Sequence record: MN510331.1
DNA from: Escherichia phage vB_EcoP_PR_Kaz2018
Reading direction: 5' to 3' (one strand)
DNA length: 39,704 nt
The first letter of the stretch is position 1. Each line of letters opens with the position of its first letter. The notes beneath the pieces were generated by a model. The model searched no databases. It was not told the origin of the DNA and saw only the letters and a program-made list of their open reading frames with translations. Shown piece by piece: positions 2,566-7,118 of this stretch. The position numbers and the translations under genes are program-made.

Positions 2566-5247
2566 ATGAGCGTCATCTCTATTGATAAACACGACTTCTC
2601 TGATGTGTCGAACGCCATTGAGCCGTTTAACCTGCTGGCCGACCACTACGGGCAAGATCTTGCAGTCAAACAGCTTCAGCTTGAGCATGAGGCATACACT
2701 GAAGGCGAGCGACGTTTCATCAAGAACCTTGAGCGACAGACTGAGCGCGGGGAACTGGCAGACAATCAGGTCGCCAAGCCTTTGATGCAGACTCTGGTCC
2801 CTAAGATTGCGCAAGCCGTCAAGGAGTGGCACGAAGGTCCAGACGGGAAGCTGTCAACCTCTCGTCCTAGCGTAGCGTTCACCATGTTGAGCACTGAAGA
2901 GAAGGCCGTCAAGGACCGCTCACTGCGTATCTCTTGCGAGTCTGCTGCGGTCATCATACTGAAGGTCATACTCTCCAAGCTGGTCAAGCCTGAGGGGATA
3001 CCAATTACACCGATGGCTTCCGCGATAGGTCGCACACTTGAGGATGAAATCCGCTTCGGTCGCATCCGTGACAAGGAGAAGGAGCACTTCAAGAAGGCGA
3101 TAGCTGAGAACCTGAACAAGCGAGCTGGGGTATCCTACAAAAAAGCCTACATGCAAGCGGTTGAGACCTCCATGTTGGAGCAAGGACAACTTGAAGATGC
3201 GTGGGGAACTTGGAGTCCTACAGAGGCTGTCCACGTTGGCATCAAGATGCTTGAGATTGTCATCCAGTCAACACAACTGGTAGAGCTTAAGCGGTACGGT
3301 GCTGGCAATGCAGCGGCTGACGTAGAGATGGTCCACCTGTCAGACTTCTGGGTCAAGAAGATGGCACAACGAGGATTCAGCCTTGCGGGTATCGCTCCAG
3401 TCTACCAGCCTTGCGTCGTTCCACCTAAGCCGTGGACTGGTGTCGTAGGTGGCGGGTACTGGGCCAAAGGTCGCAGACCGCTGCCCCTGATTCGCTTAGG
3501 GTCTAAATCAGCGGTGGCACGTTATGAAGACGTATACATGCCTGAAGTCTATGACGCTGTGAATATCATCCAGAATACACCTTGGAAAGTGAACAAGAAG
3601 GTTCTAGACGTGGTGAACATGGTCGAGAAGCTGAACAACACGCCTATTGATGACATCCCTCAGATGGAACCGCTGAAGCCTGAAGACTATGCGGGTGAGA
3701 CTGAAGAGGAACTCAAGGCATGGAAGAAGGCTGCTGCTGGTATCTACCGCCGAGAGAAGGCCCGGCAGTCACGCAGATTGTCACTGAGCTTTATCGTTAA
3801 CCAAGCGAACAAGTTCTCTCAGTTCAAGGCCATCTGGTTCCCGTACAACATGGACTGGCGCGGTCGCGTCTACGCTGTGCCGATGTTCAACCCTCAGGGT
3901 AACGACATGCAGAAGGGTCTCCTGACTCTGGCAGTCGGTAAGCCTATTGGTGCTGACGGTTTCAAATGGCTGAAGGTCCATGGTGCAAACTGCGCGGGTG
4001 TTGATAAAGTCACCTTCGAGGAGCGCATCAAGTGGGTGGAAGACAACCACGAAAACATCATGGCTGCTGCTAAGGCACCGATGGATAGTATTGAGTGGTG
4101 GGGCAAGTTAGACTCTCCGTTCTGCTTCCTTGCGTTCTGCTTCGAGTATGCTGGTGTAATGCACCACGGATTGTCTTACTCCTGCTCACTGCCGATAGCG
4201 TTCGATGGGTCATGCTCAGGGATTCAGCACTTTAGCGCGATGCTTCGTGATCACATCGGTGGACATGCAGTAAACCTAACGCCTTCCGGTAAGGTCCAAG
4301 ACATCTACCGAATCGTGTCCGACCGCATTGAGGGAGAGCTTAAAGTCCTGCTGGTTAACGGCACGGACAACGAGATGGTAACTCACGAGGACAAGAAAAC
4401 TGGTGAGATTACCGAACGCCTCAAGCTGGGGACACGAGAGCTGGCCCGGCAGTGGCTGACTTACGGCATGTCACGCAAGGTCACTAAGCGTTCAGTAATG
4501 ACTCTGGCCTATGGGTCGAAAGAGTACGGCTTCGCAGACCAAGTTTATGAGGACATCGTGATGCCAGCGATTGACTCAGGGTCTGGCGCTATGTTCACCG
4601 AACCAAGCCAAGCGTCCCGCTTCATGGCTAAGATGATTTGGGAAGCTGTGAGCGTGACCGTAGTTGCTGCGGTTGACGCGATGAAGTGGCTTCAGGGTGC
4701 TGCCAAGCTGCTGGCTGCTGAAGTGAAGGACAAGAAGACTGGAGAAATCCTGAAGCCTTGCCTTCCGGTACACTGGGTAACACCTGATGGTTTCCCGGTC
4801 TGGCAGGAATACCGCAAGAAGGATACCACTCGTCTGAACCTGATGTTCTTAGGGTCATTCAACCTTCAACCTACGGTCAACAAAGGCACGAAGAAAGAGC
4901 TTGACAAGCACAAGCAGGAGTCAGGCATTAGCCCGAACTTCGTCCACTCACAAGATGGTAGCCACCTCCGCAAGACTGTAGTCCACACGCATCGCAAGTA
5001 TGGCGTGATGTCATTCGCAGTGATTCATGATAGCTTCGGGACCATCCCGGCTGACGCTGAACATCTGTTCCGTGGTGTCCGTGAGACGATGGTCGAGACC
5101 TACCGCGACAACGATGTGCTGCTTGACTTCTACGAGCAGTTTGAATACCAGCTTCATGAGAGCCAGCGCGACAAGTTGCCTGAGCTTCCGAAGAAAGGTA
5201 AACTGAATATCGAAGACATCTTGTCTTCAGACTTTGCATTCGCTTAA
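2566..5247 (+). CDS. 1: Single-subunit DNA-directed RNA polymerase (893 aa)
   Basis: Colinear with remembered T7 RNAP over the whole length (e.g. FPYNMDWRGRVYAV, HGANCAGVDKV, DGSCSGIQHFSAMLRD, IHDSFGT, ending SDFAFA). Confidence 0.98.
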   Translation: MSVISIDKHDFSDVSNAIEPFNLLADHYGQDLAVKQLQLEHEAYTEGERRFIKNLERQTERGELADNQVAKPLMQTLVPKIAQAVKEWHEGPDGKLSTSRPSVAFTMLSTEEKAVKDRSLRISCESAAVIILKVILSKLVKPEGIPITPMASAIGRTLEDEIRFGRIRDKEKEHFKKAIAENLNKRAGVSYKKAYMQAVETSMLEQGQLEDAWGTWSPTEAVHVGIKMLEIVIQSTQLVELKRYGAGNAAADVEMVHLSDFWVKKMAQRGFSLAGIAPVYQPCVVPPKPWTGVVGGGYWAKGRRPLPLIRLGSKSAVARYEDVYMPEVYDAVNIIQNTPWKVNKKVLDVVNMVEKLNNTPIDDIPQMEPLKPEDYAGETEEELKAWKKAAAGIYRREKARQSRRLSLSFIVNQANKFSQFKAIWFPYNMDWRGRVYAVPMFNPQGNDMQKGLLTLAVGKPIGADGFKWLKVHGANCAGVDKVTFEERIKWVEDNHENIMAAAKAPMDSIEWWGKLDSPFCFLAFCFEYAGVMHHGLSYSCSLPIAFDGSCSGIQHFSAMLRDHIGGHAVNLTPSGKVQDIYRIVSDRIEGELKVLLVNGTDNEMVTHEDKKTGEITERLKLGTRELARQWLTYGMSRKVTKRSVMTLAYGSKEYGFADQVYEDIVMPAIDSGSGAMFTEPSQASRFMAKMIWEAVSVTVVAAVDAMKWLQGAAKLLAAEVKDKKTGEILKPCLPVHWVTPDGFPVWQEYRKKDTTRLNLMFLGSFNLQPTVNKGTKKELDKHKQESGISPNFVHSQDGSHLRKTVVHTHRKYGVMSFAVIHDSFGTIPADAEHLFRGVRETMVETYRDNDVLLDFYEQFEYQLHESQRDKLPELPKKGKLNIEDILSSDFAFA

Positions 5248-5261
5248 CAGGAGAGAGAGCT

Positions 5262-5477
5262 ATGAAATTTGCACACAAGCATACTGGCGTTAATGGTGGG
5301 ACTCAAATCGTGACCGTAACAGAACACAACGGCGCGGGTCTGGTGAAGACCACGGTCATCCCGACCAAGATGTCCAAGCAGCTTAACATCCCGTTCAAGA
5401 CTCTTGTAGATCTGGTCGAGTCCAGCCACGAGAAGTACCTGAAGGACGCAGTGTCCAAGCTGGAGCAGGCCAAATGA
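5262..5477 (+). CDS. Hypothetical protein (71 aa)
   Basis: ORF track; strong RBS AGGAGAGAGAG 6-8 nt upstream; lies between gene 1 and the first middle promoter. Confidence 0.55.
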   Translation: MKFAHKHTGVNGGTQIVTVTEHNGAGLVKTTVIPTKMSKQLNIPFKTLVDLVESSHEKYLKDAVSKLEQAK

Positions 5478-5551
5478 CAGACCTACAGTTACTGGCCTTG
5501 TGGCTGGGAGCACTAGCAGTATTCACTTTAATCCAACGCAGAAGAGGTTAA

Positions 5552-5574
5552 CCTAAACTATCACTATAGGATTA
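5552..5574 (+). promoter_or_regulatory. Phage-RNAP promoter
   Basis: CCTAAACTATCACTATA-GGATTA, +1 G at 5569. Confidence 0.8.
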
Positions 5575-5616
5575 GACTCAAGGTCATGACTCAAAGTCGT
5601 GGCCTTCATGATTAAC
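5573..5616 (+). promoter_or_regulatory. Late-type hairpin element (TAGACTCAAGGTCAT ... GTGGCCTTCATGATTAAC); putative RNase III site
   Basis: 8-bp stem AAGGUCAU (5580..5587) with GUGGCCUU (5599..5606); same element at 12860..12900 and 36453..36496. Confidence 0.5.
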
Positions 5617-5647
5617 CCTAACTAATCAATACAGGAGCTTTAACACC

Positions 5648-5828
5648 ATGTATCAGAACACTATCAACTTCGAGCGCATCCGTGAACGTCAGCAGACTTG
5701 AAGATTACATTCCGAAGGGCCGCAAGCTGAACAAGACTAAGCGGGGCGGAGGTGTCAAAGGCGCTTTCCGTAACGCTGAAGGCAAAGACTCTCTGGTTAA
5801 CCAAGAGAAGTATTTCGTAGGAGCATAA
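5648..5828 (+). CDS. 1.1: Gene 1.1 homolog, apparently interrupted by a +1 frameshift
   Basis: ATG 5648 with AGGAG RBS gives MYQNTINFERIRERQQT then TGA at 5699; the overlapping frame to 5828 encodes ...SRLEDYIPKGRKLNKTKRGGG..., matching the KGRKLNKTKR core I remember in T7 gp1.1. Confidence 0.4.
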
Positions 5829-5832
5829 CCAA

Positions 5833-6096
5833 ATGGGCCGACTTTATAGTGGCAACCTCAACGCTTTCAGAGCAGCGTGTAACAGGCTCTACCAGTTAGA
5901 CTTCTGCGTGATACAGCAGGAGGTACGAGGCCATCTGTCTCGGAAAGAGTGCATGAGACTTCAAGTCGAGGACCGAGCCGGTAACATCTTCGCGCTTGAG
6001 ACCTTCGCACACTACGATGAAGACGTGCTGTATAATACTGCAACAGACTACCTCAACGGTCTCGCTGACCATATCGACACATGGAGCAAAGCATAA
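5833..6096 (+). CDS. 1.2: gp1.2-like protein (dGTPase inhibitor family)
   Basis: MGRLYSGNLNAFRAA...IEDR..G....FAHYDEDVLYN aligns along its length with remembered T7 gp1.2. Confidence 0.9.
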   Translation: MGRLYSGNLNAFRAACNRLYQLDFCVIQQEVRGHLSRKECMRLQVEDRAGNIFALETFAHYDEDVLYNTATDYLNGLADHIDTWSKA

Positions 6097-7118
6097 TGAC
6101 AACTATTAAAACCAACCCGCACCGCGCTGTAGATTACTCTGAGTCTGGCGTTAAGAAGGCACTGGAAGCAGCCGGGTCTCTGGAAGCTGAAGTGAAATAC
6201 GACGGTGTGCGCCTGAATCTCCCGGTACTGCGTGAAGGTGAGACCTACTGGCTGAGTCGTGAGTCTAAACCTCTTCCAGCCTTGGAGTGGATGAACTCTG
6301 AGTTAGGGAATGCGTGGACCCAAGCTGACTGGCGATGGTTCCTACGTCAAGCTGGCTACGAAGGTGTGGGCATGATGATTGATGGCGAGGTCATGGTCAA
6401 AGGTGTAGACTTCAACACCTCCTCAGGTCTCATCCGAACGAAGTGGCTGAAGCCCAACAACGAGGAGTTCGCTGAATGCTATCCGGGCCGTGGTAAGAAG
6501 GTCCAGTTCTGGGTAGCCCGGTCAAGACTTAAGATTGTGGTCTACGGTGTCGTCGACATGACAACCATTGCTGACCCGAAAGCCGAAGGTCCTATCCATA
6601 GCGTAACCCGCCTGAAGGCCGAAGCTATAGTCCCTCTACTCCAGAAATACTTCCCGGAAATCGACTGGGTTCTCTCTGAGAGTCATACGGTCTATGACCT
6701 TGAGTCGCTCAACTCCCTGTACGAAGAGAAGCGTCTGGAAGGACACGAGGGTCTGGTAGTCAAGGACCCACTTGGCAAATATAAGCGTGGCAAGAAGTCT
6801 GGCATGTGGAAGATGAAGCCAAGTGAGGATACCGACGGGACCGTGTGTGGCCTCGTGTGGGGGACTCCTTGTAAGGCTAACGAAGGTAAGGTCATCGGCT
6901 TCGAGGTTCTGCTTGAGGACGGCATGGAGGTCTCCGCAACTAACATTAGTCGCGCCCTTATGTCCGAGTTCACAGAGAATGTTAAGTCAGACCCTGACTA
7001 CTACAAGGGGTGGGCTTGCCAGATTACCTACATGGAGCGGTTCCCAGATGGTTCCCTTCGTCATCCCTCGTTCAAGTGCTGGCGCGGAACGGAAGATAAC
7101 CCAACTGTTAAGAGTTAA
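6096..7118 (+). CDS. 1.3: ATP-dependent DNA ligase
   Basis: Adenylation motif KYDGVR; EGHEGLVVKDP, KRGKKSGMWKMKP and WACQITYME match T7 ligase; start taken at ATG 6096 (TAATG overlap, GGAG RBS) rather than track start 6081. Confidence 0.95.
   Translation: MTTIKTNPHRAVDYSESGVKKALEAAGSLEAEVKYDGVRLNLPVLREGETYWLSRESKPLPALEWMNSELGNAWTQADWRWFLRQAGYEGVGMMIDGEVMVKGVDFNTSSGLIRTKWLKPNNEEFAECYPGRGKKVQFWVARSRLKIVVYGVVDMTTIADPKAEGPIHSVTRLKAEAIVPLLQKYFPEIDWVLSESHTVYDLESLNSLYEEKRLEGHEGLVVKDPLGKYKRGKKSGMWKMKPSEDTDGTVCGLVWGTPCKANEGKVIGFEVLLEDGMEVSATNISRALMSEFTENVKSDPDYYKGWACQITYMERFPDGSLRHPSFKCWRGTEDNPTVKS

Follow-up and report, generated by a model that had tools for sequence, protein, structure and literature searches.

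A close described counterpart of the locus studied here is gene 1.1 of bacteriophage T7, the product of which (gp1.1, NP_041961.1; MRNFEKMTKRSNRNARDFEATKGRKLNKTKRDRSHKRSWEGQ in NC_001604) is a small basic protein of 42 residues that includes the sequence KGRKLNKTKR. In T7, promoters are located at 5848 and 5923, gene 1.1 occupies 6007-6135 and gene 1.2 begins at 6137. A literature search on the function of gp1.1 yielded genome descriptions only and no functional study. Closer in sequence is the corresponding gene of coliphage K1F, annotated as gp1.15 (CAJ29349.1) at 5648..5827 in the 39,699-bp record AM084414, with orthologs in the genera Kayfunavirus and Przondovirus. AM084414 is the second, independent record of K1F; the other is DQ111067, of which NC_007456 is the RefSeq copy. 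A further described system bears on how a gene interrupted by a UGA codon may be read, namely the +1 frameshift site of prfB, which consists of CUU UGA C and an upstream Shine-Dalgarno-like element.

We analyzed the locus in Escherichia phage vB_EcoP_PR_Kaz2018 (MN510331.1), taking the whole deposited stretch of 39,704 nucleotides as the window. The ATG at 5648-5650, which is preceded by the Shine-Dalgarno sequence AGGAG, opens a frame of 17 codons that terminates at TGA 5699-5701, while the +1 frame (phase of 5649) is uninterrupted from 5649 to its TAA (Table 1). A sequence-only reading had reported this arrangement of start codon, ribosome binding site, 17 codons and stop, and direct reading of the letters agrees with it in each respect. 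Its figure of 46 codons for the second frame is correct when counted from 5688 and otherwise only approximate, as the length is 42 codons from the GAA at 5700, where the junction lies, and 48 codons from the GTG at 5682. The break coincides with a doubled T at 5698/5699, where the window reads ACTTGAAG and its relatives read ACTGAAG. As deposited, the window contains no intact single ORF for a protein of the Pfam family PF08200, the reading frame being split at 5698/5699. When one T is deleted, a 180-nt ORF of 59 amino acids plus stop is obtained with the product MYQNTINFERIRERQQTEDYIPKGRKLNKTKRGGGVKGAFRNAEGKDSLVNQEKYFVGA.

Table 1. Features of the gene 1.1 region, positions of the nine single-base indels, and product lengths before and after their repair (window coordinates)
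Feature	Position	Strand	Remarks
Phage RNA polymerase promoter, at the position of T7 phi1.1	5556..5577	+	Core CTATCACTATAGG at 5558-5570; putative function
Recurrences of the CTATCACTATAGG core	2480, 5558, 7189, 8505, 10872, 17183, 20004, 21003, 25327, 32603, 38858	+	
Leader hairpin, 12 bp	5580..5606	+	Candidate site for processing by RNase III, its position being analogous to that of T7 R1.1
Shine-Dalgarno AGGAG	5633..5637	+	10 nt before ATG 5648
5' fragment of gene 1.1 homolog	5648..5701	+	MYQNTINFERIRERQQT; in relatives the same ATG opens an uninterrupted 59-aa ORF
TT, one base of which is the frame-shifting extra	5698..5699	+	Single T in all relatives aligned
3' fragment of gene 1.1 homolog, +1 frame	5700..5828	+	Product ends EDYIPKGRKLNKTKRGGGVKGAFRNAEGKDSLVNQEKYFVGA, stop TAA 5826-5828; PHROG 4383 match
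Gene 1.2, dGTPase inhibitor homolog, 87 aa	5833..6096	+	4 nt past the stop of the gene 1.1 homolog
Nine single-base indels (DQ111067/window coordinates)	2243, 2257, 5698, 7856, 8610, 8630, 10111, 12631, 15898		
gp0.38			59 aa deposited, 86 aa repaired; 86 aa in relatives
Gene 1.1 homolog, product			17-codon ORF deposited, 59 aa repaired; 59 aa in relatives
gp1.7			148 aa deposited, 155 aa repaired; 155 aa in AM084414
gp2.5 (start altered)			211 aa deposited, 232 aa repaired; 232 aa in relatives
gp3.2			156 aa deposited, 157 aa repaired; 157 aa in AM084414
gp4 primase/helicase (C-terminus altered)			586 aa deposited, 566 aa repaired; 566 aa in relatives
gp5.5			82 aa deposited, 96 aa repaired; 96 aa in Ro45lw

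From residue 6 to residue 44, and thus across the break at residue 17/18, the repaired 59-aa product matches PF08200 (Phage_1_1) with 42.3 bits (cut-off 21, E = 1e-10). T7 gp1.1 itself scores 53.5 bits against the same family, and precomputed PF08200 hits are also present on the products of relatives at the same position. Because the repaired product exceeds the PF08200 cut-off across the junction, its resemblance to gp1.1 is not a matter of chance. The repaired product also matches PHROG 4383 from end to end (E = 6.5e-42), with the 3' fragment alone matching positions 17-58 of 58, and in a BLASTP comparison it is 45% identical to T7 gp1.1 across 42 residues (E = 9e-6), the N-terminal NFE motif included. 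The protein is basic, with a pI of about 10, and exactly this 59-aa sequence was found on 134 public contigs. By sequence comparison, the split gene is an ortholog of T7 gene 1.1 and is predicted to encode a small basic protein.

The window protein and T7 gp1.1 are both small and basic and have in common an N-terminal motif of NFE followed by basic residues (NFERIRER in the window, NFEKMTKR in T7), which is part of the Pfam match, as well as the KGRKLNKTKR core. The latter had been named as the conserved core of gp1.1 in the sequence-only reading and is identical to T7 gp1.1 residues 22-31 (NC_001604). The two differ in length, as T7 gp1.1 has 42 residues and the window protein 59, with a longer glycine-rich C-terminal part (GGGVKGAFRNAEGKDS...), and in family assignment, as T7 gp1.1 belongs to phrog_2490 and the window protein to the sister family phrog_4383; in addition, the window ORF, unlike T7 gene 1.1, is interrupted by an extra T. 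K1F gp1.15 occupies the same locus and has the same start codon and the same length of 59 amino acids, with 3 residue differences from the repaired window protein (G19D, I36V, M49L), while the gp1.15 proteins of several Kayfunavirus phages are identical to it. The only feature that sets the window apart from K1F gp1.15 and its orthologs is the extra T at 5698/5699. Gene names at this locus call for some care, as the label 'gp1.1' in AM084414 sits on an unrelated 71-aa ORF (5262-5477, + strand) and the true homolog is labeled gp1.15, a mislabeling that has spread to the annotations of relatives. The 71-aa ORF has no PF08200 match and belongs to PHROG 8082, and its exact protein was found only in other phages.

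The surroundings of the split gene follow the T7 plan. As in T7, the gene lies downstream of the RNA polymerase gene and of a phage promoter and directly upstream of gene 1.2; in the window the promoter core is at 5558-5570, the gene at 5648-5828 and the start of gene 1.2 at 5833. Together with the PF08200 match, this location, with the RNA polymerase gene on one side and gene 1.2 on the other, substantiates the earlier proposal that the locus is a gene 1.1 homolog. The promoter core CTATCACTATAGG has 13 matches in the window (9 exact, the others near-copies), all on the + strand, where 0.76 would be expected by chance, and the annotation of phage Ro45lw places a promoter at the corresponding position. 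Scanning 5200-6200 for sigma-70 promoters and intrinsic terminators found none, and the gene 1.1 homolog is expected to be transcribed from the phage promoter. The leader that follows the promoter core is strongly structured: the fold of 5568-5650 has a free energy of -22.8 kcal/mol (z = -3.62), and none of 200 shuffled sequences was as stable. By analogy with T7 R1.1, the hairpin in this leader is a candidate RNase III site. An Rfam scan of 5200-6200 gave no match, leaving the hairpin outside any curated family.

Gene 1.2 is annotated as gp1.2 in AM084414, and the product of relatives at this position carries PF10922 (T7-like_gp12). This gene is intact in the window yet unannotated in DQ111067, and vB_EcoP_PR_Kaz2018 has no recorded protein identical to its product, which fits annotation transfer from DQ111067. 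On the other side of the promoter, we noted a hydrophobic ORF of 25 amino acids at 5474-5551 on the + strand (MTDLQLLALWLGALAVFTLIQRRRG), the start of which overlaps the stop of the 71-aa gene in an ATGA. It shows few changes across about 20 relatives, is unannotated in both K1F records, and may encode a small membrane peptide.

Two sets of comparisons bear on the origin of the extra T, one with the two K1F records and one with other relatives. The window and DQ111067 are both 39,704 bp long, and an ungapped position-by-position comparison of the two finds 1875 substitutions and 0 indels, corresponding to 95.28% identity (4.72% mismatch), with the density of substitutions varying between 14 and 108 per kb. 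Despite a divergence of 4.7%, collinearity with DQ111067 holds throughout the window. DQ111067 and AM084414 differ from each other at 16 positions, 9 of which are single-base indels, and the doubled T at 5698 is one of these, AM084414 having a single T and an intact gp1.15. At all nine sites (9/9) the window carries the state of DQ111067. We aligned relatives at the nine sites, comprising four GenBank Kayfunavirus genomes, one isolate from Kenya and 21 IMG/VR contigs, and all relatives that have a homologous stretch at a site (from 1 to 26, depending on the site) showed the state of AM084414. The nine indels are shared by the window and DQ111067, and the independent sequences disagree with both.

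At position 5698 in particular, the single T is present in AM084414 and in 26 of the 26 aligned relatives, and TT is present in the window and DQ111067. The relatives have one 59-aa ORF from the same ATG. More widely, of 605 phage records in which this protein occurs, 602 have 80% or more of it encoded at one place and in a single frame, and the other three are consistent with two records derived from DQ111067 plus one distant Erwinia phage. In IMG/VR, a 23-mer bearing the TT was found on 0 contigs and the corresponding single-T 22-mer on 21; the 18 hits to a shorter 17-mer with TT were unrelated chance matches without exception, so that the TT form of this gene is absent from that collection. 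The ORF has 41 variable sites among 18 distinct relatives, of which 31 are third positions of codons, and the gene is therefore a single frame under purifying selection.

The window is a real deposit. The genome announcement of vB_EcoP_PR_Kaz2018 (MN510331) gives 39,704 bp, terminal repeats of 178 bp and a GC content of 49.8% (PMC6895311), and the window agrees with this in its perfect terminal repeat of 178 bp and its GC content of 49.87%. Eleven of its proteins, among them the RNA polymerase, are identical to QFP929xx entries of vB_EcoP_PR_Kaz2018. We had considered that the window might be an artificially mutated copy of K1F, and dropped this idea once the announcement and the identical proteins pointed to a real deposit scaffolded on a reference. 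The deposited product names, such as 'ligase', 'head to tail connector', 'tail tube' and 'endo-N-acetylneuraminidase', match those of DQ111067. The announcement reports 95.28% identity to K1F at 100% coverage and processing with Genome Detective and SPAdes (PMC6895311). It describes a SPAdes assembly and does not state that a consensus in reference coordinates was deposited (PMC6895311). Genome Detective links de novo contigs by alignment to a RefSeq reference. An independent de novo assembly of the phage was sought through exact-protein look-ups, which returned no Logan source for any of 11 window proteins.

We propose that MN510331 was deposited in K1F coordinates, those of the reference DQ111067/NC_007456, with substitutions only, because the window has zero indels over 39.7 kb and all nine of the private indels of that record at a divergence of 4.7%. 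In such a case the pipeline would have copied the indel state of the reference, and single-base errors of the reference would have been inherited along with it. The extra T is best explained as a reference-specific indel error because it is one of nine that are contradicted by AM084414 and the relatives, and within DQ111067 it was probably an error of base calling rather than a mutation in that laboratory stock. Inserted at 5698/5699 (ACT-T-GAA), it would split an intact 59-aa gene into the 17-codon ORF and the +1-frame remainder. We consider it highly probable (about 93%) that the frameshift is an artefact of the record, namely a one-base insertion inherited from an error-containing reference, and the phage itself would be expected to carry a single T at 5698. 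An indel was among the causes that had been suggested from the sequence, and it is the one that agrees with the data, as a fault of the record: the extra T is one of the nine indels at which the window agrees with DQ111067 and both differ from AM084414 and the relatives.

The alternative that fares best is a genuine one-base insertion, in the phage and/or in the K1F stock from which DQ111067 was obtained, that would make the gene 1.1 homolog a pseudogene. The gene is small, and its inactivation could be tolerable if it is non-essential here as in T7; since gene 1.1 is dispensable in T7, an inactivating mutation would be tolerated and could have arisen in the Scholl K1F stock. The TT is also present in two deposited lineages, DQ111067 and the window. 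These two depositions are not independent, however, as they have the nine indels in common and no other indel between them across 39.7 kb. Natural relatives at a comparable identity (93-95%) align in 7-17 pieces that cover 91-94% of the query. The single T of the independent AM084414, the lack of any IMG/VR contig with TT and the intact gene in 602 of 605 records likewise argue against a genuine insertion, and we regard it as unlikely.

Far less probable still is programmed +1 frameshifting of the prfB type, in which a ribosome paused at ACU-UGA would slip by one base and go on to make the 59-aa protein. A shift at ACU|U|GAA does recreate the protein of the relatives residue for residue, and the window resembles prfB in having, at the shift site, an in-frame UGA at which a +1 shift restores the product. 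The likeness does not extend to the elements that drive the shift. In prfB the CUU codon re-pairs to UUU, whereas the window has ACU and lacks a slippery P-site codon. The +1 codon CUU is neither cognate nor near-cognate for tRNA-Thr, and standard pairing rules allow no re-pairing from ACU. The 15 nt upstream of the site (CGTGAACGTCAGCAG) contain no stimulator that resembles a Shine-Dalgarno sequence (GGAGG- or AGGGGG-like). All 26 relatives in the alignment, and 602 of 605 records, have the gene in one frame, so the arrangement is conserved in no relative and there is no conserved recoding site, and the base concerned is one of the nine reference-specific indels. Programmed frameshifting, which had been put forward from the sequence as one cause of the break, is not upheld by the single frame of the relatives, the lack of re-pairing and the lack of a stimulator. 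A variant of this idea is that the phage and the K1F stock of DQ111067 truly read ACTTGAAG and make full-length gp1.1 through an unconventional +1 shift at ACU-UGA that needs neither a slippery codon nor a Shine-Dalgarno stimulator. This seems to us scarcely credible; if true, the shift would be a recently arisen recoding event that rescues a frameshift mutation.

Equally hard to credit is that the locus holds two separate small genes, one for a 17-aa peptide from ATG 5648 and one for a 48-aa protein that starts at the internal GTG 5682 or by reinitiation: GTG 5682 does open a 48-codon ORF in the +1 frame that still matches PHROG 4383, but no Shine-Dalgarno sequence precedes it (TTCGAGCGCATCC), a collection of about 15 billion proteins does not contain the 48-aa sequence, and in relatives there is one ORF from the upstream ATG, with the N-terminal 17 residues forming part of the family match. 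Two short ORFs had been a third option of the sequence-only reading, which fails in view of the one 59-aa ORF that the same ATG opens in relatives. It had further allowed that related phages might share the two-ORF arrangement with a conserved internal start; we looked for such an arrangement in the alignment of relatives and found none.

In order to see the effect of the indels on the other gene products, we repaired the record by setting the nine window sites to the state of AM084414 (Table 1). Seven of the nine repairs give five ORFs the lengths at which their products are called in relatives; for gp0.38, the gene 1.1 homolog, gp2.5 and gp4, the lengths in relatives are product calls in independent assemblies. 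Through the nine inherited indels, seven products are truncated or altered in the record: gp0.38, that of the gene 1.1 homolog, gp1.7, gp2.5, gp3.2, gp4 and gp5.5.

MN510331 seems to be a consensus built in NC_007456/DQ111067 coordinates, and the value of this finding is mainly curatorial, in that both MN510331 and NC_007456/DQ111067 should carry a flag. The RefSeq entry NC_007456 has the same nine discrepancies. Anyone who scans these records for novel small ORFs, recoding sites or pseudogenes will obtain false positives at nine positions, and findings of frameshift or truncation at the other eight indel sites have the same artefactual cause. The record may also lack real insertions and deletions that distinguish this phage from K1F. 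An example of the gene-content variation that a consensus in reference coordinates could hide is an extra 76-aa ORF that several close relatives (L051, L052 and L053) have immediately downstream of the RNA polymerase gene, ahead of the 71-aa gene, and that is absent in K1F and in the window. With regard to the phage itself, the split gene 1.1 is not a biological feature; the gene is an ordinary member of its family, intact in every independent sequence examined.
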